Positions 18,513 through 27,273 of a stretch of DNA of 43,731 bases are shown here, in pieces. Under the pieces are notes generated by a model. It was given only the letters and a program-made list of their open reading frames with translations, did not search any database and was not told the DNA's origin. Positions within the stretch are counted from its first letter, which is position 1, and each line of letters opens with the position of its first letter. The position numbers and the translations under genes were made by a program. This DNA comes from a virus: IMG/VR virus record IMGVR_UViG_3300045988_034292, positions 1-43,731 of that record. One strand, given 5' to 3'.

Positions 18513-19922
18513 ATGACTTCAAAAACACAATTATTAAACACGCTTGATAGTCTCGTTAATCAACGTGTCACCGTACCAACTAACAAATATGGTGGTCAGT
18601 GTATTGCTTTGATTGATAACGTTTTGCAATATCAAGGATTGTTTAACCTTGATTTCAGCTACTTAAACGCCATCGACGGCTTAAGCCGTGCTGAAAGTCT
18701 AGGATTGAAAGTCACACGTTTTAACGGCTCTAACAATCCACCAGTGGGGAGTGTATGGGTAACTAACTGCTTGCCTTACCACCAATTTGGCCATATCGGT
18801 TTTGTAGTGGCAGAAAACCCAGACGGCACAGTTACCACAGTCGAACAGAATATCGACGGTAATGCTGACTGTCTCTATAATGGCGGTTGGACTCGCAAGG
18901 TAACGAGAAACCTCGATAGCGCTGGTAATTTCAGCTATATTGACTGGAATGCACCAACTCAACAAATGGTTGGGTGGTTTGAATTGCCATTCGATGATGT
19001 TGAGAACGAAGAAATTGACGGCGTGAAGAAAGGTGATTACTTCATCGATGTTTCAGCCTATCAATCAGCAGACCTCACTGGAATTTGCCAAGCGGCTGGC
19101 ACTAGGAACACTATTATTAAGGTTTCAGAGGGTGTCGGATGGTTAAGTCCAGTTATGGCACAACAAACAAACACAAGTAACTGTATCGGCTACTATCATT
19201 TCGCTCGATTCGGTGGAGATGTAGGCGCTGCACAAGCTGAAGCGAATTACTTCATCAGCAATCTGCCGTCTCACCCACGCTATCTAGTGTGCGACTACGA
19301 GGATGGCGCTAGTGGAGACAAGCAAGCTAACACTAATGCAGTATTGGCATTTATGGATGTTTGCAAGTCAAACGGCTTTGAACCAATCTATTACAGTTAC
19401 AAGCCTTATACACTAGCTAATGTGTATGTAGATCAAATCACTGCACGCTATCCAAATAGTCTATGGATTGCAGCTTACCCAGACTACGAGGTACGCCCAG
19501 AGCCATATTGGGGCGTGTATCCAAACATGGAACATACACGCTGGTGGCAGTTTACATCAACCGGCCTAGCTGGTGGATTGGATAAGAATGTAGTTATCAT
19601 TAACGATGGTGACAATCAAATTAGCAAGAAAGAGGAAGAAGAAAATATGGATTATGTAGTACGTAGCGAAAGCGGAAGTCAAGGATATGTTGGTGTAGTT
19701 AATGGCCGTGTGTTTGGTATCGGTTCAATGGGAACAGTGGACACTCTACGTTCAGCGGGTGCTAAACACTTGACATTGCCAGACGATGATTTTGACCGTT
19801 TCTTGAATAGTCAATCAAACGATACAGCGGCAGTCTCTAAAGCAATCAATGAAGCTAGCGCTTCAGTGGTAAAAGCTATCGAAGAACGTGCACAAGCCAC
19901 ACAAGGCCAAACTGGAAAATAG
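18513..19922 (+). CDS. Endolysin: N-terminal CHAP, central GH25 muramidase, C-terminal putative wall-binding domain
   Basis: 469 aa. CHAP Cys/His context: YGGQCIALIDN and FGHIGFVV. GH25-like motifs: FIDVSAYQ, YHFARF and CDYED. Strong RBS aaaggag. Confidence 0.85.
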   Translation: MTSKTQLLNTLDSLVNQRVTVPTNKYGGQCIALIDNVLQYQGLFNLDFSYLNAIDGLSRAESLGLKVTRFNGSNNPPVGSVWVTNCLPYHQFGHIGFVVAENPDGTVTTVEQNIDGNADCLYNGGWTRKVTRNLDSAGNFSYIDWNAPTQQMVGWFELPFDDVENEEIDGVKKGDYFIDVSAYQSADLTGICQAAGTRNTIIKVSEGVGWLSPVMAQQTNTSNCIGYYHFARFGGDVGAAQAEANYFISNLPSHPRYLVCDYEDGASGDKQANTNAVLAFMDVCKSNGFEPIYYSYKPYTLANVYVDQITARYPNSLWIAAYPDYEVRPEPYWGVYPNMEHTRWWQFTSTGLAGGLDKNVVIINDGDNQISKKEEEENMDYVVRSESGSQGYVGVVNGRVFGIGSMGTVDTLRSAGAKHLTLPDDDFDRFLNSQSNDTAAVSKAINEASASVVKAIEERAQATQGQTGK

Positions 19923-20003
19923 ACCACGCAAACTATAAAAACGAAAAGGAGTATATCACCTCCCCTCACACTGCAGTAGGGATACCATGGCAGTAGTGGT
20001 CGA

Positions 20004-20031
20004 AGCCTCAGCGTTGTGCTGGGGCTTTTTT
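20004..20031 (+). terminator. Intrinsic terminator downstream of the endolysin
   Basis: agcctcagc / gctggggct 9-bp stem (one G-U), loop gttgt, then a T run. Confidence 0.7.
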
Positions 20032-20062
20032 GTGTTATAATAGAATTATCCATCATAGGCAA

Positions 20063-20094
20063 AGAGCTACGAGGTTATCTCATAGCTCTTTTTT
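20063..20094 (+). terminator. Second intrinsic terminator
   Basis: agagctacgag / ctcatagctct stem (one mismatch), followed by ttttt. Confidence 0.6.
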
Positions 20095-20103
20095 ATATTT
20101 AAT

Positions 20104-20123
20104 AAGGGGCAAATAAGGGGCAA
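20104..20123 (+). repeat. AAGGGGCAA x2, 11-bp phased (attP-region repeat pair 1)
   Basis: The 9-mer aaggggcaa occurs at 20104-20112 and 20115-20123. The same 9-mer pair recurs at 20343-20362. Confidence 0.8.
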
Positions 20124-20269
20124 TAAGTGTAAACTTTAGTAACTTCATGTAAGTTTTACTGTCTATATCTTACACGCATATAACCTTATTTGATAGGTTT
20201 TCTTCCTATTATATACGCATTTAAAATGGCACTAACAGAATACCGTGGTTTGAAATCATTCTACAACTT

Positions 20270-20300
20270 GAAAAAATAAAACGTTGATTTAACAACGTTT
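20270..20300 (-). terminator. Intrinsic terminator of the integrase transcript
   Basis: Perfect 8-bp stem aaacgttg/caacgttt. On the minus strand it is followed by ttttatttttt. Confidence 0.7.
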
Positions 20301-20339
20301 CTGAGGACTCTAGGTTAAACCTAGGGTTCTTTTTTTCTA

Positions 20340-21509
20340 CTAAAGGGGCAAGGAAGGGGCAAGGTTGTTTGTAATGATATTATCTAAAACGTTGACCGCT
20401 TGATCCTTCATGTTCCTTGTGACATGGGTATATATGCTAGTAGTCACTTCCGAGTCAGCATGACCAACCCTGTCCATGATGGTTTTTAGTGGCACATTGT
20501 TTTCAGCTAGTATGCTAATTGTGGTGTGTCTGAAGATATGAGGGGATAGATGCTTGTCGATAGGTGTTTCCAGTCTGGTGTTCGCTCGTTGAAGTGATGC
20601 ACTCAAAATGGTGCTGTGGATAGGTTTACCGGTGTTGGTTGTAAAAATCTTATCGCTATGATACCAATCTGGATTGGCTGTTTCGCTTAACTCTCTCAAC
20701 TCTAGTAACTGGTCAATGATTTCTATCTCTCGATTAGTGAGGTAGGTGGTTCGATAACTAGCGACTGTTTTCGTCCCTTCGTTTTCTGGAATGTATCTGT
20801 TGAAGGATGTGTGGATATCCAAAGAGCGTGTCTCTTTGTGGTAATCTGAAACAGTTAGACCAGCCAACTCTCCTATCCGACAACCGTTTAAAAGCATAAA
20901 CTCGCACGCTAGAGCATATCTCAGTGTTACGTCTTTTCGGTAGAGCTCTTTCAATAAGCGACTGTATTCGTCCGGTTCTAAGTATTTATTCTTGGCAATT
21001 TGTTGTTTCTCAAGTTTATTCTTTTTCTTTGGAAGACGTGCCTTCCTCGATGGGTTATCGGTTATAAGTTGTTGGTCCATAGCATAATCGAAGAATGTAT
21101 TTAACACGGTCTTGGCACGATATTTCTGCGAATCTGTCCAGTCTTCAGTGTCTAGTAAGGATTGGATAAGTCTGACATTGATATTTGATAAGATTGTTCC
21201 TTGTTCGATAGCGTCAGATATTCGCTTAACGGATGCTGCAAGGCTCTTGATTGAACTTAACTTAATCTGCTTTTGATGAAATTCCCACCACTCGTTGAAA
21301 GCACTATGGAATGATACATTAGTGGTGCTTGACAATTCCATTTTCTGAGCTATCTTATCATCCAGCAAGCGTTGAGCTTCTTTCTTTGCTCGATTCGAAC
21401 CACTGGATAGAGTTACAGATACCCGTTTCCATTTCTCGGTGTAAGTGTCCTTGTATCTTTCAAAATATTTATATTTTCCGTTTTGTAATTGTTCTACCCA
21501 CATTGTCAT
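20340..21509 (-). CDS. int: Tyrosine recombinase (phage integrase)
   Basis: 389 aa. The C-terminal catalytic region has RIGEL, HIFRHT and GHADSEVTTSIYTHV (R...H-x-x-R...Y). It is adjacent to an AT-rich attP-like region. Confidence 0.9.
   Translation of the reverse strand: MTMWVEQLQNGKYKYFERYKDTYTEKWKRVSVTLSSGSNRAKKEAQRLLDDKIAQKMELSSTTNVSFHSAFNEWWEFHQKQIKLSSIKSLAASVKRISDAIEQGTILSNINVRLIQSLLDTEDWTDSQKYRAKTVLNTFFDYAMDQQLITDNPSRKARLPKKKNKLEKQQIAKNKYLEPDEYSRLLKELYRKDVTLRYALACEFMLLNGCRIGELAGLTVSDYHKETRSLDIHTSFNRYIPENEGTKTVASYRTTYLTNREIEIIDQLLELRELSETANPDWYHSDKIFTTNTGKPIHSTILSASLQRANTRLETPIDKHLSPHIFRHTTISILAENNVPLKTIMDRVGHADSEVTTSIYTHVTRNMKDQAVNVLDNIITNNLAPSLPL
20343..20362 (+). repeat. AAGGGGCAA x2, 11-bp phased (repeat pair 2, overlapping the integrase 3' end)
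   Basis: aaggggcaa occurs at 20343-20351 and 20354-20362. The pair encodes the last residues (APSLPL) of Int on the opposite strand. Confidence 0.8.
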
Positions 21510-21590
21510 ATCTCCTTGATTTTGGTAAAATGGGTACAGAAAAAGACATGTAAGGCTGTTTTCCAGTTTACACGTTTTTTCTGTGGTGCT

Positions 21591-21636
21591 AGCTCTACAC
21601 TCTAAGTTTGGCGACGGAGAGTGTAGGGCTTTTTTT
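21591..21636 (+). terminator. Plus-strand hairpin terminator between int and the lysogeny genes
   Basis: agctctacactct / agagtgtagggct stem of about 13 bp (one G-U), a 14-nt loop, then tttttt on the plus strand. Confidence 0.55.
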
Positions 21637-21769
21637 ATTGCGATAATAATTTAGTTTTCTGCGCTTGAAATTCTTCTTCAGTAAGTACGCCGTTATCAAC
21701 CAATGATTTTAATTTAATCAGCTCGTCAGCAATTAAATTCTGCGGTAGTGGCTGACTGTTCTGGCTCAC
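21635..21769 (-). pseudogene. SHOCT-domain remnant / tiny ORF
   Basis: The minus-strand frame encodes ...DELIKLKSLVDNGVLTEEEFQAQKTKLLSQ*, a SHOCT-like C-terminal motif. Only a GTG start is available and there is no clear RBS. Confidence 0.3.
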
Positions 21770-21834
21770 TTCTATCTGCGGTCTTATCGACTTCAGTTTT
21801 TGCTAGATCTTTTATTTTTTTGAAGTCCAAATTT

Positions 21835-22215
21835 TTATCCTATCAATTCGTAGTACTCATCAATGACCATCAACTCATCTGTTACTGTCCTAAGCTTGTG
21901 CTTTTGCATAAAATGCAAGTAGTTAAAAGACTTGTGGTCATCTGATGCCGAAAGCTCTTCTTCGAGCAGCTTATGGATCATGTGCCTATTCGCTTCATTT
22001 TCGCATCTAGTGCGATTGTTTTGATAAAGTTCAGCAGAATGATCCCGATGCCCTAATTCGTGGTATATGACCCGTTTTTTGGCGTTCTCTGGCAGCTCAC
22101 GGTTTATGAAAATAATATTGATTTCTTTGATGTAAACTCCTGGTCTATGCCAGAGGTCATTATCAAAGTAAGCGAGAGTGACACCGTGCGAGTCTACTAG
22201 CTCTTCAATAGTCAT
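21835..22215 (-). CDS. ImmA/IrrE-family zinc metalloprotease (anti-repressor protease)
   Basis: 126 aa with an HEXXH motif (YHELGH). It lies in the same leftward operon as the XRE repressor. Confidence 0.75.
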   Translation of the reverse strand: MTIEELVDSHGVTLAYFDNDLWHRPGVYIKEINIIFINRELPENAKKRVIYHELGHRDHSAELYQNNRTRCENEANRHMIHKLLEEELSASDDHKSFNYLHFMQKHKLRTVTDELMVIDEYYELIG

Positions 22216-22235
22216 AGGCTATTATCCTTTTTGTG

Positions 22236-22715
22236 TTATTTTGTTGTTAAAATGGTTACGATGATTGCTAGTATCCCCAGTAAAGTACTAACTAACAATC
22301 CGATAAACCAATACATGAACTCTTTTTTGCTTTTAGCTTGCTCTTCTAATCTCTTATTCTCTTGAGTTAGAAACATAGTCTCTACACGTTTCTCGAAATT
22401 ATCAAATTTCAAATCAACTTGTTCAAATTTCAAGTCGATTTTTTCAAATCCGCTACGCATATCTTGTCTGAGTTGGTCAATTTTTAAATCAATTTTCTCA
22501 AATCCGTGCTGGGTGTCAGAATTAATTTTATCAAGTTTTAAGTCGATTTCAGATTTGCTGTAAGTATCTTGTGGCATAATAATTTCCTCCGATAACATTT
22601 CTGACTCCATTATACCACGATTTTGTATGGGTACAGTTTTCAATGAAGGTTTAGAAGCGTGAATTGAAGAAACATTGGAAGGGGTGGGTTTGAAATTATC
22701 TTGTGTGTCCGGCAT
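22236..22715 (-). CDS. Tail-anchored coiled-coil membrane protein of unknown function
   Basis: 159 aa. The alternative start ATG 22577 has a strong GGAGG RBS and gives 113 aa. There are four IDLK(L/I/F)(D/E) heptad-like repeats and a single C-terminal TM (FMYWFIGLLVSTLLGILAIIVTILTTK). Confidence 0.6.
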   Translation of the reverse strand: MPDTQDNFKPTPSNVSSIHASKPSLKTVPIQNRGIMESEMLSEEIIMPQDTYSKSEIDLKLDKINSDTQHGFEKIDLKIDQLRQDMRSGFEKIDLKFEQVDLKFDNFEKRVETMFLTQENKRLEEQAKSKKEFMYWFIGLLVSTLLGILAIIVTILTTK

Positions 22716-22718
22716 CGT

Positions 22719-23141
22719 TTATCCCCACTTTCCAAAATGATGATAACTATATGCTGTATCTACTTCCTGACCGTTTTCGTCGATCAAGACGAAGAAAAAG
22801 TAAAAATCACTTGGGTTCTGTATCGTAAAATTAAAACTGAAATTTCCAGTGGCCATACCAAAGCCGTCTTCGAGTAGCACAAAATCTTGTCTCGTGATAT
22901 TAATTCTAGTAGCATGGACAGGGTAAGACGTGCCGTTAGGGAAGTGGGCAGTTAGAGACAAGATATAATCTGTTTCAGGTCTTAGATTAAAGAAGTCTAG
23001 AAATGCAACCAAAGATGTCGAACCAGGGAATACATCGAAATTGGTTATTGTTCCTAACGATTGAGCTGTTTCAGGATTGACAATTCTAATTGCTGTCATC
23101 TTTTCTCTGAACGGATTCTTTTTCATTGGAATACTTGTCAT
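22719..23141 (-). CDS. Hypothetical beta-rich protein co-transcribed with the repressor
   Basis: 140 aa, starting 1 nt after the repressor stop. No signal peptide or TM and no motif I recognise. Confidence 0.6.
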   Translation of the reverse strand: MTSIPMKKNPFREKMTAIRIVNPETAQSLGTITNFDVFPGSTSLVAFLDFFNLRPETDYILSLTAHFPNGTSYPVHATRINITRQDFVLLEDGFGMATGNFSFNFTIQNPSDFYFFFVLIDENGQEVDTAYSYHHFGKWG

Positions 23142-23142
23142 A

Positions 23143-23511
23143 CTATCTACCTCTCAAATAAATCTCAATGATGTTCTGTATGGCATCGATGTCTTCTTCT
23201 GTAAGAGGCTTGCCATCGAAGGTCTTGGCATTCTCTGCCATCTTTCGTAGGTCGTCAGACGTGTATCCTGCGATTGTATCATCCTTTGCAATAGCCGGGC
23301 CATCTCCGAAAAGAATGTAATCTGTCGAAGTCCCCAAGGCTTGAGCTAATTTCACAATCTTTGTCCCTGTTGGAATACTAGCGCCGCTTTCCCACTTCGA
23401 AATAGTTGAGTCAGACTTATACCCTAACATTTTCGCCAATTCAAGTTGGCTAATGCCCTTGCTAGCTCTCAAACTTTCAATTCTGCCACCTCTTTGCTTA
23501 TTCAAATCCAT
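23143..23511 (-). CDS. CI-like XRE-family repressor (no S24 peptidase domain)
   Basis: 122 aa with an N-terminal HTH (ISQLELAKMLGYKSDSTISKWESG). It is divergent from a Cro-like gene. The short C-terminal domain lacks a Ser/Lys autocleavage module. Confidence 0.85.
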   Translation of the reverse strand: MDLNKQRGGRIESLRASKGISQLELAKMLGYKSDSTISKWESGASIPTGTKIVKLAQALGTSTDYILFGDGPAIAKDDTIAGYTSDDLRKMAENAKTFDGKPLTEEDIDAIQNIIEIYLRGR

Positions 23512-23538
23512 ATCTTTCTCCTTGCTGTTTATATTAAC

Positions 23539-23567
23539 ATTATATAGTAGACTTTCTTAATTTTCAA
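23539..23567 (-). promoter_or_regulatory. Leftward (repressor) promoter TTGAAA-17-TATAAT
   Basis: The reverse complement of 23562-23567 is TTGAAA and of 23539-23544 is TATAAT. The spacer is exactly 17 bp, about 28 nt upstream of the CI ATG. Confidence 0.7.
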
Positions 23568-23617
23568 GTTGATTTATAAAAAAAACAAAAAAACTTGAAA
23601 AAAAATCAATAAAACTA

Positions 23618-23646
23618 TTGACATTGAATTTAATTCAAGCTATAAT
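23618..23646 (+). promoter_or_regulatory. Rightward (early lytic) promoter TTGACA-17-TATAAT
   Basis: Consensus -35 at 23618-23623 and -10 at 23641-23646 with a 17-bp spacer, upstream of the Cro-like gene. Confidence 0.8.
23623..23639. promoter_or_regulatory. Operator O1 (aTTGAATTTAATTCAAG)
   Basis: 16 of 17 positions match the palindrome, and it fills the spacer of the rightward promoter. Confidence 0.7.
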
Positions 23647-23679
23647 GTGTTTGTAAGTTAGTTAGAGAGGAGGAACAAA

Positions 23680-23883
23680 ATGGCAGAAACGGTTCCAAAA
23701 ATTACAATCAAAGAACTACGTGCTCGTCATAAAATGACGCAAGAGCAATTCGCTAAAAGCGTTGGTACTACTGCTCAAACAGTAAGTGCATGGGAGAAAA
23801 ACCAACTTTCAATTTCTCCTAAAAATATGGTAGCTATTTGTAATAAATACCACATTCAATCGTCTGATTTGTACGGTATCTGA
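23680..23883 (+). CDS. Cro-like XRE-family HTH regulator
   Basis: 67 aa with HTH MTQEQFAKSVGTTAQTVSAWEKN and RBS gaggagg. It is the first gene of the rightward operon. Confidence 0.85.
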   Translation: MAETVPKITIKELRARHKMTQEQFAKSVGTTAQTVSAWEKNQLSISPKNMVAICNKYHIQSSDLYGI

Positions 23884-23902
23884 TATTTTTTTTACAACAA
23901 AA

Positions 23903-23919
23903 CTTGAATTTAATTCAAG
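23903..23919. promoter_or_regulatory. Operator O2 (perfect palindrome CTTGAATTTAATTCAAG)
   Basis: Perfect 17-bp palindrome 20 bp downstream of the cro stop and 280 bp from O1. Confidence 0.65.
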
Positions 23920-24012
23920 GTAAAAAGCTAATAAGAACGTAGCTATTTGAAACCTATTAATATTATCTGAGGTTCTGATTCGAACCTAATTAAAATTATG
24001 AAAGGAGCAAAC

Positions 24013-24267
24013 ATGAAAGAACCATACAAGTACCTTGAAATCTCTGGCAATATTGCTGGACGTATTGAACTGGAAACAAAAAAAGACCTACTTGTCCGTA
24101 GAGCGATGGTCATTGATGGACACATCGGTTTATGCGAACAAGCGGTCTACGTTGATAAGAAAGTGCTAGATAGCTACTGGGTCAAAATAGTAGAGTTATC
24201 TGCTATTCCTGAAACCATCAACAGCGTTGACAGCACTGATTTGGTTAGGAAATGGTTGAACATGTAG
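24013..24267 (+). CDS. Hypothetical early protein
   Basis: 84 aa from ATG 24013 (RBS gaaaggag; the track ORF starts at 23998). Its 3' end overlaps a convergent minus-strand ORF. Confidence 0.5.
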   Translation: MKEPYKYLEISGNIAGRIELETKKDLLVRRAMVIDGHIGLCEQAVYVDKKVLDSYWVKIVELSAIPETINSVDSTDLVRKWLNM

Positions 24268-24432
24268 ATTGACAGCATCATGTCCATTGACATACTCAAC
24301 GCATTTCACCAAGTAATGCTCAGATTTATGGTCTGCTGACTTAGCAATGACAGAACCGATAGTAGGAATAGCGGGCAATGTTATTGATGCAGGTTCAACA
24401 TGACCATTAATCATAATGTGACAAGTAATCAT
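24196..24432 (-). CDS. Hypothetical small protein encoded leftward inside the rightward early operon
   Basis: 78 aa with a strong RBS (aaaggagga, 7-nt spacing) and an extended -10 (TGATATAAT) about 30 nt upstream. Confidence 0.55.
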   Translation of the reverse strand: MITCHIMINGHVEPASITLPAIPTIGSVIAKSADHKSEHYLVKCVEYVNGHDAVNLHVQPFPNQISAVNAVDGFRNSR

Positions 24433-24461
24433 AGTTATCCTCCTTTCGTTAGGATAAGTCG

Positions 24462-24470
24462 ATTATATCA
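24462..24470 (-). promoter_or_regulatory. Extended -10 element (TGATATAAT) for the leftward small gene
   Basis: The reverse complement of attatatca at 24462-24470 is TGATATAAT. The -35 is only weak. Confidence 0.5.
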
Positions 24471-24483
24471 GAAAGGACTACCA

Positions 24484-24726
24484 ATGGAAATTACCTATAA
24501 ACCAGTCGGAATTAATGAGACGGCTGAGTGGGGAGACTACGACCACCTCATGCAGCGGTGGGAAGGACTAGGGAAGTCGATGGCAAAGAACCTCATCCGA
24601 GAAATGAGGGACAACAAAGACTTCCAAAACTACGTATTCAACCCGACACACAAACTGGTTTTTATCAACTATGAAGGTTTTAAGTCCTTCATCGAGTGGA
24701 AAACCAGAAACAGATTCAAACAATAA
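24484..24726 (+). CDS. Hypothetical early protein
   Basis: 80 aa from ATG 24484 (the track ORF begins at 24400 with an unlikely N-terminal extension that overlaps the leftward gene). The C-terminus is basic. Confidence 0.5.
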   Translation: MEITYKPVGINETAEWGDYDHLMQRWEGLGKSMAKNLIREMRDNKDFQNYVFNPTHKLVFINYEGFKSFIEWKTRNRFKQ

Positions 24727-24739
24727 CAAGGAGTAAAAC

Positions 24740-25045
24740 ATGGCTAATCATTACATAAAAAGGTTGGTAGCGTGCGCTATCCAATTCGACAAAGACTTCC
24801 ACAAGATGGAAGGTGGCATCCCTGCTCTCGACAACATTACGGAGTTAATCCTCTACATCAATCAGACGATGGATGTCTCAAAAAAAGCAAAAGACGAGCT
24901 TGATGATATCGACACAAAATGTCTGATGTACAGAGATGTTTGCAGCAAACCAGACACACCAGACAGTAAATGTAAAGATCTATTTCAAGACGTAGCAATC
25001 GATTTCATTGCTACATGCAGAACACACGATATTTTGGACATTTAG
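24740..25045 (+). CDS. Hypothetical early protein
   Basis: 101 aa ORF with RBS aaggag upstream. Confidence 0.55.
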   Translation: MANHYIKRLVACAIQFDKDFHKMEGGIPALDNITELILYINQTMDVSKKAKDELDDIDTKCLMYRDVCSKPDTPDSKCKDLFQDVAIDFIATCRTHDILDI

Positions 25046-25054
25046 AAAAAACAT

Positions 25055-25171
25055 CCCTAGCCGTAGCAGTGAGCTAGTGAGATATCAGCGTAAGCAATAC
25101 CAACTGCAATACTGACATTATAAATCTCCTAAAAATATTAAAACCTCACTAGCTCTCTAGTGCGGTTAGGG
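25055..25171. repeat. Long imperfect inverted repeat (27-nt arms, 63-nt spacer)
   Basis: The arm ccctagccgtagcagtgagctagtgag (25055-25081) pairs with ctcactagctctctagtgcggttaggg (25145-25171). 21 of 27 positions are Watson-Crick and one more is G-U. Confidence 0.7.
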
Positions 25172-25190
25172 AACAGAAAGGAATTTAAAA

Positions 25191-25346
25191 ATGAAAAAAC
25201 TACTTAAATGGCTATTTGTAAAAGAGAAACAAGAACCAGAATATTTCTTTGAACCAGTATGGACGCCATACGAGGAAAATGAACGCAAATACGAAGCTCG
25301 AAAAAAACGTGAACAAGAGCTTTTGGCAAAATACGGAAACCGTTAA
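25191..25346 (+). CDS. Hypothetical small protein (51 aa; not in the ORF track)
   Basis: Hand translation: MKKLLKWLFVKEKQEPEYFFEPVWTPYEENERKYEARKKREQELLAKYGNR. RBS agaaagga lies 8 nt upstream. Confidence 0.45.
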   Translation: MKKLLKWLFVKEKQEPEYFFEPVWTPYEENERKYEARKKREQELLAKYGNR

Positions 25347-25503
25347 GATCACTATCTTCAATCCGTAGCCACGGCTCACCGTGGAGTGTAACTTATACCT
25401 TTCCCCAAAAAATATAAACTTTACCCACATATTCACACATACCTTTCTAAAAAAACATTGAAAAAACACGAAACGGTGGGCTATGGGTGCGGATTGAAGC
25501 ACT

Positions 25504-25560: not shown

Positions 25561-27273
25561 ATGATTTCACAAACAATTGCAAAACCAGGATTCACTGTAT
25601 CTAAAGCCTATGGGCTTTGTGGAACATTGGCGCTTGCTACCGCTCTATTGATTGGAGCTGGTGCAGTGTCAGCGGACGAAACAACGGCACCAGTGGTGGA
25701 CGCACAACCAGCCGTGTCTAATGTCTACACTGCCGATAATGCTGGGAATATTACGGTGACACCTAGCGAAACAGTGGCACCAGTAGCTGAAACACCAGTA
25801 TTTACTCCACCAGCACCAGTGGAATCTCAACCGATTGCAGAAACTCAACCAGTAGCAACTACTGTTACTAAAGAGGGAACAGAAATCACAGTTTCTAATC
25901 CAGAAGTTAACGTGACATTCCCTAACGGTACGGGTAAATATAGCCCATTCGAAGTTGAATACAAGGATATCAATATTCCAGACGATATCCCAGTTAACGA
26001 GGGCGACAAGGTGGTTACTGAGCTGCCTAAAGAAATTGGTCTTCAAACATCATTCGACTTTGATGTTTACAACAACGAGAATGTCGTTGGTAAGGCCAAT
26101 GCTGACGCTCAAGCTCGCAAGATCACAACTACTTTTAACAATTACTTCACTGAGCATCCATTGAATAAGAAAATGTCTCTTAAATTCGACGCTAAGTGGA
26201 CTGACGTGGTTACTCCAGGTAAACCAGTGACCGTTAATTTTAACGGGACAGTTAAAAACTTTGAAATTGCTGACGGAAACCCAATTCCAACAGACGAATT
26301 GCTTTCAAAATGGGGTTGGCAAGACAAGAATGATCCACAGATTATTAACTGGACTTTGCGACTTAACACAGCACGCAAGGTACTTAACAATGCAGTGCTA
26401 TCTGATACTTGGTCCAACAATCAACAATTTGTTGACGGTTCACAAAACATCTACTTTGTAGAAGACCCACTCAATTGGACTGTTATCGACCACTCTGCTA
26501 AAGACTACTTGGAGTCTTGGAACGTACGAGCTGACGGTTTTGACGCAAAATTCAAAGAGTTTAACCGCATCATGTACATTGGTTACCAAACTCGATTGAA
26601 AACAGCGGTTAAAGATAGCACCAATCCAACCAATAAAGCTGAGTTGGTAGCGGTAGACGCTGGGGCGAAATCGTCTTCTAAGGTCCAGTTAGTTGGTGGC
26701 CGTGGTGACGCAAGCGGTGAGAATAAACCGGAACCAACTTTCGAGGTGCCAAATTACGCACCTAAAGTTGACATCCCCGAATTTGAGGGCGGTATCCCAG
26801 GTATTCCAGAGGTACGAGAATTGCCGGAATATACTGAGCCAATTGGAACTGTTCCAAATGACGCTCCAGTTTTGGATAAGCCAGAATGGAGTGGCGGCAC
26901 AGTACCAAATGAAGCTCCAGTACATTACAAACCTGAGTTTGAAGGTGGAGTAATTCCGAATGATGCCCCTATCCTCGATTTGCCAGAATTGCATATCCCA
27001 GAGGAACCAACACCAGAAAAACCTAGCGCACCCAAAGAGGTGCCTAGCAAGCCTGTAGACGCTCCGAAATCTAAAGAGGTAGAAACTACCACAGTTAGTT
27101 ATAACCTCGATTCTGAGCCGTCTGAGGTGGCAAACACACCGGTTTACAGTGCGACCTTGCCAAACACTGGTGAAAAAGAAGGTATTGCTAGCACTTTGGG
27201 ATTGGTAGTGATTGCTGCCGGTATCACTGCTTTAACTCTTGGCTTCAAGAAGCACAACGAATGTGAGGAATAA
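25561..27273 (+). CDS. LPXTG cell-wall-anchored surface protein (adhesin-like) carried by the phage
   Basis: 570 aa. It has a signal peptide (...LALATALLIGAGAVSADE) and an MSCRAMM-like stretch (ITTTFNNYFTEHPLNKKMSLKF). Four Pro-rich 17-aa repeats are followed by LPNTG at 27157-27171, a hydrophobic helix and KKHNECEE. Confidence 0.85.
   Translation: MISQTIAKPGFTVSKAYGLCGTLALATALLIGAGAVSADETTAPVVDAQPAVSNVYTADNAGNITVTPSETVAPVAETPVFTPPAPVESQPIAETQPVATTVTKEGTEITVSNPEVNVTFPNGTGKYSPFEVEYKDINIPDDIPVNEGDKVVTELPKEIGLQTSFDFDVYNNENVVGKANADAQARKITTTFNNYFTEHPLNKKMSLKFDAKWTDVVTPGKPVTVNFNGTVKNFEIADGNPIPTDELLSKWGWQDKNDPQIINWTLRLNTARKVLNNAVLSDTWSNNQQFVDGSQNIYFVEDPLNWTVIDHSAKDYLESWNVRADGFDAKFKEFNRIMYIGYQTRLKTAVKDSTNPTNKAELVAVDAGAKSSSKVQLVGGRGDASGENKPEPTFEVPNYAPKVDIPEFEGGIPGIPEVRELPEYTEPIGTVPNDAPVLDKPEWSGGTVPNEAPVHYKPEFEGGVIPNDAPILDLPELHIPEEPTPEKPSAPKEVPSKPVDAPKSKEVETTTVSYNLDSEPSEVANTPVYSATLPNTGEKEGIASTLGLVVIAAGITALTLGFKKHNECEE

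Follow-up and report, generated by a model that had tools for sequence, protein, structure and literature searches.

The window analyzed here is the whole of IMG/VR virus record IMGVR_UViG_3300045988_034292 (43,731 nucleotides, nt), the genome of a temperate Streptococcus phage whose structural half is ~85% identical to S. salivarius phage Javan536 and whose integrase is near-identical to that of S. salivarius Javan535. Our subject is a pair of adjacent genes, here called A and B, which lie between a CI-like repressor gene and the gene for an ImmA-like protease in the leftward lysogeny operon of this phage. The operon is flanked by the lysin gene (18513-19922) and the divergent genetic switch, and its order is CI-like repressor, A, B, ImmA, a SHOCT open reading frame (ORF) and integrase. 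From right to left, the features of the locus are:

23539..23567, minus strand: promoter-like site of the leftward operon, TTGAAA-17 nt-TATAAT, 11 of 12 matches; putative function
23143..23511, minus strand: CI/ImmR-type helix-turn-helix (HTH) repressor, 122 amino acids (aa); HTH_3 3e-17
23283..23302, unstranded: mosaic junction within the repressor gene, placed by megablast match boundaries and alignment
22719..23141, minus strand: gene A, 140 aa, predicted soluble and all-beta (immunoglobulin (Ig)-like sandwich); phrog_10787
22236..22715, minus strand: gene B, long form, 159 aa; phrog_6701; predicted disordered N-terminus, coiled-coil repeats and C-terminal transmembrane (TM) anchor
22236..22577, minus strand: gene B, short form, 113 aa from M47, with GGAGG at 22586-22590; the conserved core of the family
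22401..22547, minus strand: region of B encoding four [IV]DLK[LIF][DE] repeats, residues 57-105, from motif positions
22248..22319, minus strand: region of B encoding a single predicted C-terminal TM helix, residues ~133-156, from the KD19 maximum of 2.76 and an AlphaFold2 (AF2) model
21835..22215, minus strand: ImmA-like M78 metalloprotease, 126 aa, with HELGH; Peptidase_M78 5e-9; phrog_87 metallo-protease 4e-32
21635..21769, minus strand: SHOCT-domain ORF, 44 aa, between ImmA and integrase; SHOCT Pfam 1.4e-10
20340..21509, minus strand: tyrosine integrase, 389 aa; E 1e-248 against the Javan535 integrase

The genes of interest are tightly packed. The ATG of A follows the CI stop after 1 nt (TAG T ATG), the ATG of B follows the A stop after 3 nt, and a gap of 20 nt, with an AAGGA ribosome-binding site before ImmA, separates B from the protease gene. 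The promoter-like site of the operon is divergent from a perfect consensus site at 23618-23646 on the plus strand, upstream of cro. Our scan returned no minus-strand terminator-like site within the operon, Rfam returned no match in region 19500-25500, and any ORFs on the plus strand there are short and unsupported. This layout suggests that A and B are co-expressed with the repressor in lysogens; both lie inside the prophage repressor operon and should therefore be made in the lysogenic cell. A preliminary description of this DNA had proposed the same operon layout, the sizes of A and B, the 1-nt gap after CI, four repeats and a single C-terminal TM segment in B, a soluble beta-rich A, and a HEXXH protease of ImmA type after B. 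ORF, motif, hydropathy and AF2 data bear out each of these points, the protease being identified by its HELGH motif and Peptidase_M78 match. Further downstream, the SHOCT ORF is followed by an imperfect hairpin (~21590-21630) without a T tract, and is missing at the same position in the IPP8 and SM1 records.

To catalogue the wider occurrence of the pair, loci containing A were drawn from phage records, species-representative genomes, metagenome assemblies and IMG/VR, and their ORFs were labelled with profiles of A and B together with the CI, ImmA and integrase of the window. Among 23 distinct A loci that are intact, 22 have, as the next same-strand ORF after A, one that encodes a small protein with a C-terminal TM segment, and in these 22 loci the start of that ORF lies between -59 and +5 nt of the A stop, mostly at +3. 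The B profile matches 19 of the 22 proteins; the other three were recognized by architecture alone (S. parauberis Javan394 and Javan386, and S. agalactiae Javan23), two of them with a Y[ST]KxEIDxK motif. The A-then-B order is kept down to ~29% identity in A. The hosts of A loci comprise at least 10 Streptococcus species, including S. pneumoniae, S. mitis, S. cristatus, S. salivarius/vestibularis, S. lutetiensis, S. suis, S. entericus, S. dysgalactiae, S. pyogenes, S. agalactiae, S. parauberis and S. hyovaginalis. A homologue of A is present but unannotated in the records of Javan535 (L004 2242-2670), Javan551 (L025 1864-2292) and Javan465 (L039 1632-2054), so annotation-based surveys would undercount the cassette.

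The pair always lies within the repressor-to-integrase operon, while its position inside that operon varies, with at least four arrangements. The order CI-A-B-ImmA is found in the window, in IPP8-type pneumococcal phages, in Javan535 and in loci L008-L012. The order CI-ImmA-A-B occurs in S. mitis (L014/L036), L015, Javan551, Javan155 and Javan465, and a variant in S. hyovaginalis (L042) has an S24-type repressor and a 302-aa gene before ImmA. Loci L017-L024 and L033-L035 read CI(HTH+S24)-A-B-integrase with no ImmA, and Javan394, Javan23 and Javan386 read CI(S24)-small ORF-TM protein-A-B', where B' is the TM protein recognized by architecture. Combinations of an S24 repressor with A-B and without ImmA come from S. 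vestibularis/salivarius, S. lutetiensis and IMG/VR contigs. We considered A-B as an obligatory ImmA cofactor, a relation that the preliminary description had also named, and rejected it: the cassette occurs with S24 repressors lacking ImmA, and its position relative to ImmA is variable where ImmA is present. Homology gives neither gene a function. A-then-B is a mobile two-gene cassette of streptococcal prophages.

In the window, the slot that this cassette fills is a precise one. The repressor shares 96% identity with that of S. thermophilus TP-J34 in its HTH half (alignment columns 1-75); its C-terminal half (column 76 to the end) shares 98% with IPP8 and IPP63 and 96% with S. mitis SM1; from these alignments, the window repressor reads as a recombinant of two phage lineages. 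The block comprising the repressor C-terminus, A, B and ImmA shows ~92% DNA identity to pneumococcal prophages. In SM1 the slot is empty and ImmA, 87% identical, directly follows the repressor (junction TAG CCT ATGACT, ImmA start). In IPP63 the slot holds one 364-aa gene, joined as TAG T ATGAC, and in the window it holds A-B, joined likewise as TAG T ATGAC. All three rejoin at ImmA with ...ATAGCCT ATGACTATTGAAGAG. The A-B pair, the IPP63 gene and the empty SM1 site are a precise cassette replacement in one slot, and the earlier proposal that A-B was inserted between a repressor and its cognate ImmA holds, since SM1 has the two genes adjacent and IPP63 has other cargo at the identical junction. 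The N-terminal third of the IPP63 cargo (L003 1947-3041) gives a partial match to PADLOC candidate PDC-S02 (4e-17), and the whole protein matches nothing significant in Pfam. ImmA-type proteases act on their cognate repressor, and for this reason the repressor-ImmA pair presumably must stay matched; if so, a position in this slot would tie the cargo to the module.

The cassette also outlasts the phage that carries it. In S. mitis KLC11 (L036 8248-12667) and in oral metagenomes, it lies in a prophage remnant of 5.6 kb, flanked by host genes, namely a HAD hydrolase gene and rplS. Truncation of this remnant has left 90 aa of ImmA and 214 aa of the integrase, and no lytic gene survives; A (196 aa), B (144 aa) and the repressor are all intact. 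The A protein of the remnant was found on 58 contigs. The remnant also holds two genes of unknown function, one of 233 aa and one of 254 aa with N-terminal hydrophobic segments. Decay of the cassette itself was seen in S. merionis (L016), where A and B are both fragmented (pseudogenised).

A and B are real genes, as attested by PHROG matches, by patterns of substitution and by the conserved A-then-B order. A is a full-length match to PHROG 10787 (2e-71) and B to PHROG 6701 (4e-68), both of which are listed with function not known. Ratios of nonsynonymous to synonymous differences per site (pN/pS), obtained as pairwise Nei-Gojobori counts against eight homologous cassettes, are 0.08-0.18 for A and 0.05-0.18 for residues 47-159 of B. 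Both A and the core of B are under strong purifying selection. Codons 1-46 of B evolve almost neutrally, given their pN/pS of 0.64-2.2, and the frame stays open in every homologue.

The boundary of the B core coincides with a second start codon. This start, M47 (ATG 22577), has GGAGG upstream at an 8-nt spacer and gives the 113-aa form, and many database homologues of B, as well as the annotated gene of S. agalactiae Javan53, begin at the equivalent methionine. From the selection on the core, the GGAGG and the starts of these homologues, we infer that the 113-aa form is the functional conserved unit of B. The long form, whose ATG lies 3 nt past the A stop, may be made too, via translational coupling. 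Among distant homologues, the N-terminal extensions of B are unrelated sequences. B contains exactly four [IV]DLK[LIF][DE] motifs, at residues 57, 75, 93 and 100, and one hydrophobic segment (residues 133-156, Kyte-Doolittle 2.76), preceded by KSKK and followed by ~3 residues; it has no Cys and no N-terminal hydrophobic segment. In its AF2 model (predicted local distance difference test score, pLDDT, 63), residues 1-53 are disordered and residues 54-158 form one long helix that runs into the membrane anchor. A Tandem Repeats Finder (TRF) array lies within the repeat region (22402-22449), and homologues differ there by indels of 7, 14 and 25 residues, so that the length of the predicted coiled coil varies.

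Several families share the build of B, a small coiled coil with a C-terminal TM helix, among them CCDC90-like (DUF1640), DUF2951 and XhlA. Sub-threshold Pfam matches to CCDC90-like/DUF1640 (PF07798) were returned by 14 of 21 B-family members (best E 4.2e-4), none reaching the curated cut-off, and the B of the window itself had no such match at E<=1. Sub-threshold DUF2951 matches were returned by 5 of the 21. These resemblances may reflect only a shared coiled-coil and TM composition. Membership of XhlA (PF10779) was rejected: none of the 21 members matches at E<=1, and the sole support is a free-text name, 'hemolysin XhlA', which one database source gives to a B homologue. Matches of the B profile to the haemagglutinin HA2 coiled coil among PDB sequences were judged to be compositional noise.

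The predicted structure of A is quite different in kind. Its AF2 model (pLDDT 76.8, predicted template modelling score, pTM, 0.71) is all-beta with nine strands, and the protein has no hydrophobic segment and no Cys. At E<=1, Pfam returned no family for A, hence no RexA/DUF4747 domain and no DNA-binding domain. By profile search the A family appears to be tiny: 1.84 billion representative proteins yielded 55 matches, mostly of ~135-150 aa and unannotated. The matches within the phage collection are streptococcal in every case, and a protein of an Anoxybacillus phage, matched by Foldseek, hints that the family extends further; the plasmids searched yielded no homologue of A. Against PDB sequences, the family profile gives weak FN3-like matches (E 0.03). 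The near-invariant residues are E13, K14, P39, N52, Y59, G95 and Y133, among which we recognized no catalytic motif, and a binding module is therefore the simplest reading of A.

Both genes are also found with other neighbours and other partners. In S. lutetiensis prophages, a three-repeat Ltp lipoprotein gene (Pfam 1e-68) lies downstream of A-B in the same operon, and in another S. lutetiensis prophage A-B is followed by an AAA_15/21 ATPase and a Dam-like methylase (PADLOC PD-Lambda-5_B, 6e-115). Five near-identical S. intermedius satellites carry A without B, in an operon that reads Fic (PADLOC PDC-S04/SoFic, 2e-115)-A-AbiD/Abi_2 (2e-26)-integrase, with 2 nt from A to AbiD. One of these satellites, Javan277 (L005 1461-5363), is a compact defence island in which a ThsB_TIR and SLATT_1/DUF4231 pair adjoins the Fic-A-AbiD operon. 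S. agalactiae Javan53 (L040 1275-2965) encodes an S24-type repressor, a 185-aa RelA_SpoT-domain protein (31.6 bits, cut-off 27), a B homologue and an integrase. Here the RelA_SpoT protein stands in A's place upstream of B; the B homologue matched no PADLOC model. By its domain content, this arrangement could be a membrane-linked alarmone-synthetase pair. Small alarmone synthetases are proven toxins of toxin-antitoxin (TA) pairs (toxSAS), and one such pair, Phrann gp29/gp30, defends its lysogen (PMC7229694). Finally, B occurs alone. It directly follows an S24 repressor in loci L043/L044, and in TP-J34 (L006 3287-3757) its homologue orf55, annotated as 73 aa with a CUG start and covered by a longer ORF of 156 aa, is a solitary gene of the 'lysogenic conversion' module, placed after the lysin and annotated with a promoter and a terminator of its own. 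These neighbours, together with the contents of the slot, make a defence role for A-B plausible.

The most likely job of A-B is probably the protection of the lysogen against other phages. More specifically, the genomic context leads us to favour, tentatively, a Rex-like pair that is expressed in the lysogen and acts by exclusion or abortive infection. A host-protective role is preferred over a phage-internal one because the cassette is independent of repressor type and free in its operon position, because defence candidates fill the same slot, because A and B are wired to AbiD and to a RelA/SpoT-like protein, and because the pair survives in a dead prophage. The preliminary description had offered A-B, placed between repressor and ImmA, as an exclusion or abortive-infection candidate. 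The candidate role remains plausible from the wider context. The cassette is found in at least four positions, of which the repressor-ImmA slot is one, and it has no specific link to ImmA.

A possible mechanism can be outlined on this basis. The repressor promoter would drive soluble A and the membrane protein B in the lysogen. B would be tail-anchored, its coiled coil would lie on the cytoplasmic side of the membrane, and B would oligomerise there. A, a small Ig-like binding module in the cytoplasm whose translation would be coupled to that of B, would serve as the sensor or keeper of B. A product of an infecting phage would engage A or the variable N-terminus of B, whereupon B would perturb the membrane, or the DNA-entry or lysis machinery located there, and the infection would fail. 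A bolder form of this proposal, which we regard as doubtful, would make A and B a modular abortive-infection family widespread among the prophages of streptococci, with S. pneumoniae, S. pyogenes, S. agalactiae and S. suis among the hosts. In such a family B would be the common tail-anchored membrane effector or anchor, and its cytoplasmic partners, Ig-like A or a RelA/SpoT-like enzyme, would be interchangeable; the sensor A would also be wired to AbiD, and the fast-evolving N-terminus and two starts of B would set specificity or timing.

Repressor-linked exclusion pairs of a soluble and a membrane protein are known (PMC6426596, PMC7542560, PMC11077077, PMC12894663). Rex and Rex-like pairs are reported to be lysogen-expressed and to exclude heterotypic phages by an abortive mechanism (PMC6426596, PMC11077077, PMC12894663). 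Like A-B, the genes for lambda RexA/RexB, Sbash gp30/gp31, CarolAnn gp44/gp43 and the P. putida prophage RexAB are two genes beside, or co-transcribed with, the repressor gene, and the Rex order of repressor, soluble gene and membrane gene, all co-oriented, is that of the window. The proteins themselves differ. A (140 aa, Ig-like) lacks the DUF4747 of RexA and Sbash gp30 and has no sequence or domain kinship with them, and RexB and gp31 have four TM segments where B has one C-terminal TM helix and a coiled coil. The prophage-encoded cytoplasmic and membrane proteins gp30 and gp31 of Butters interact and defend against heterotypic phages (PMC7542560); A-B is likened to them as a predicted pair of cytoplasmic and membrane proteins. 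The Butters proteins are unrelated to A and B, belong to a host of another phylum and are encoded in the genome centre. The comparison with Rex and Butters is thus offered as one of working logic, not of family membership.

Several observations weigh against assigning A-B to defence. Nothing above cut-off was returned for A or B by Pfam and NCBIfam, and PADLOC-DB v2.0.0 returned 0 families at E<=1, in agreement with the preliminary description, which had recognized no motif in either protein. The structure search that it had proposed, made by Foldseek with the A model, returned from the PDB generic Ig-like or carbohydrate-binding module (CBM)-like sandwiches of no assigned function (E ~2e-4, TM-scores 0.43-0.54), for example the Pycsar AGS-C domain, the Wzt carbohydrate-binding domain and glycosidase Ig domains, and from BFVD uncharacterised viral proteins. 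Both sets are uninformative, and we did not accept these generic folds as homologues of A. A lacks any catalytic or nucleotide-binding signature, and B, with a single TM segment and almost nothing extracellular, is unlike the channel proteins of Rex-type systems, which have four TM segments. Each of the partner swaps, the one with AbiD and the one with RelA/SpoT, comes from a single lineage, and A is not strictly required, because B occurs without it (TP-J34 orf55; L043). The integrase-repressor region also carries non-defence morons, which makes guilt by association weak. In pneumococcal phages, the same region carries genes that tune induction (PMC12637031). Our literature search found no characterisation of A, B or similar tail-anchored prophage proteins.

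The induction-tuning genes point to a reading in which A-B would tune the life cycle of its own prophage, with a membrane-linked influence on induction, on excision or on the timing of lysis. In pneumococcal prophages of the ImmAR type, experiments have shown that accessory genes of the lysogeny module alter activation and lysis (PMC12637031), and RexA is reported to influence the lambda switch (PMC11077077). The proteins concerned, SzaL, SpaL and ThaL, come from the same phage group and module, are variable cargo by ImmR/ImmA or C1 and associate with the membrane or the surface; the descriptions given for them are zinc metalloprotein or HIRAN-domain protein, and A and B lack such domains, and their tested phenotypes are induction and lysis, not exclusion (PMC12637031). 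A link to lysis could also be read from the B-like gene directly after the lysin in TP-J34, from the label 'hemolysin XhlA' and from the sub-threshold DUF2951 matches. The DUF2951 family is found near staphylococcal lysis genes. The XhlA label is offset by the absence of any XhlA match at E<=1 in the B alignment. More broadly, the cassette is intact in the S. mitis remnant that lacks lytic genes and has truncated ImmA and integrase, it serves two unrelated repressor mechanisms (ImmA-cleaved and S24 self-cleaving), and A lies in a satellite beside AbiD and Fic, all of which render a role in the prophage's own life cycle unlikely.

Two further readings keep a benefit for the lysogen or the prophage while differing in mechanism. 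Classical superinfection exclusion, in which membrane protein B, with or without A, would block the entry of incoming DNA without cell death, would suit the predicted membrane anchor of B and its occurrence alone, whether right after the repressor (L043) or as a promoter-plus-terminator moron in TP-J34. It would also suit the genomic niche, which A-B shares with Ltp of S. thermophilus TP-J34. Lactococcal Sie2009, of P335 phages, occupies this niche as well; both proteins are encoded in the repressor-integrase lysogeny operon, expressed in the lysogen and moron-like in character. The known Gram-positive superinfection exclusion (Sie) proteins Ltp and Sie2009 act from the outer face, whereas B would expose only ~3 residues outside the cell and A would be cytoplasmic. 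Ltp, a lipoprotein, is secreted and contains Lipoprotein_Ltp repeats; neither A nor B matches that domain (PF07553), and both lack Cys and a signal peptide, which upholds the initial view that neither is Ltp-like. Moreover, Ltp shares an operon with A-B in S. lutetiensis prophages, suggesting a non-redundant role, and the partner swaps involve Abi or TA-type genes, not surface proteins. We judge this form of exclusion to be distinctly improbable. Less probable again is an addiction pair of TA type that would stabilise prophages and their remnants with no anti-phage role, in which A would neutralise B, a membrane toxin, or the two would have the opposite roles. The two genes are small and translationally coupled, they persist in a decayed remnant, and in Javan53 a protein of the toxSAS type, a proven TA class (PMC7229694), replaces A before B. 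Yet A lacks the DNA-binding domain usual for type II antitoxins, B stands alone downstream of repressors where a free toxin should not be tolerated, plasmids yielded no A homologue, and the pair is pseudogenised in S. merionis; in any case, TA-type and Abi functions can coexist. Other moron functions take up the remaining probability.

Elsewhere in the window, the early region encodes a 570-aa protein (25561-27273, plus strand) with an N-terminal signal-like segment, Collagen_bind (4e-15) and Big_8 (1.5e-9) matches and an LPXTG anchor. By these features it is a phage-borne surface adhesin of the MSCRAMM (microbial surface components recognizing adhesive matrix molecules) type, and its gene is possibly one for lysogenic conversion. 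The related locus L029 has an Adhesin_P1_N/GbpC gene at a comparable position.

PHROG families and entries for hypothetical proteins already cover A and B. Their conserved behaviour as a cassette, the exactness of the slot, the lack of dependence on ImmA and the swaps of partner appear to be new; we found no literature describing any of these. Whatever its function, the pair marks the gap between repressor and cognate ImmA as a precise cargo slot, and this slot moves between species groups with the block of repressor C-terminus and ImmA, as in the present S. salivarius-type phage with its ~92% pneumococcal-like block. The partner combinations A+B, A+AbiD, RelA/SpoT-like+B and B alone provide a concrete, testable design. 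Should A-B instead tune induction, it would extend recent work on pneumococcal accessory lysogeny genes. Protective cargo of unknown kind in this prophage region is what specialists expect, and if A-B defends the lysogen, it would be a further repressor-linked exclusion pair of soluble and membrane proteins and not a new category. Its hosts include major pathogens and dairy and oral species, in which phage resistance and prophage competition matter in practice, and if protective, A-B would be an uncharacterised and apparently streptococcus-wide addition to the prophage defence repertoire.

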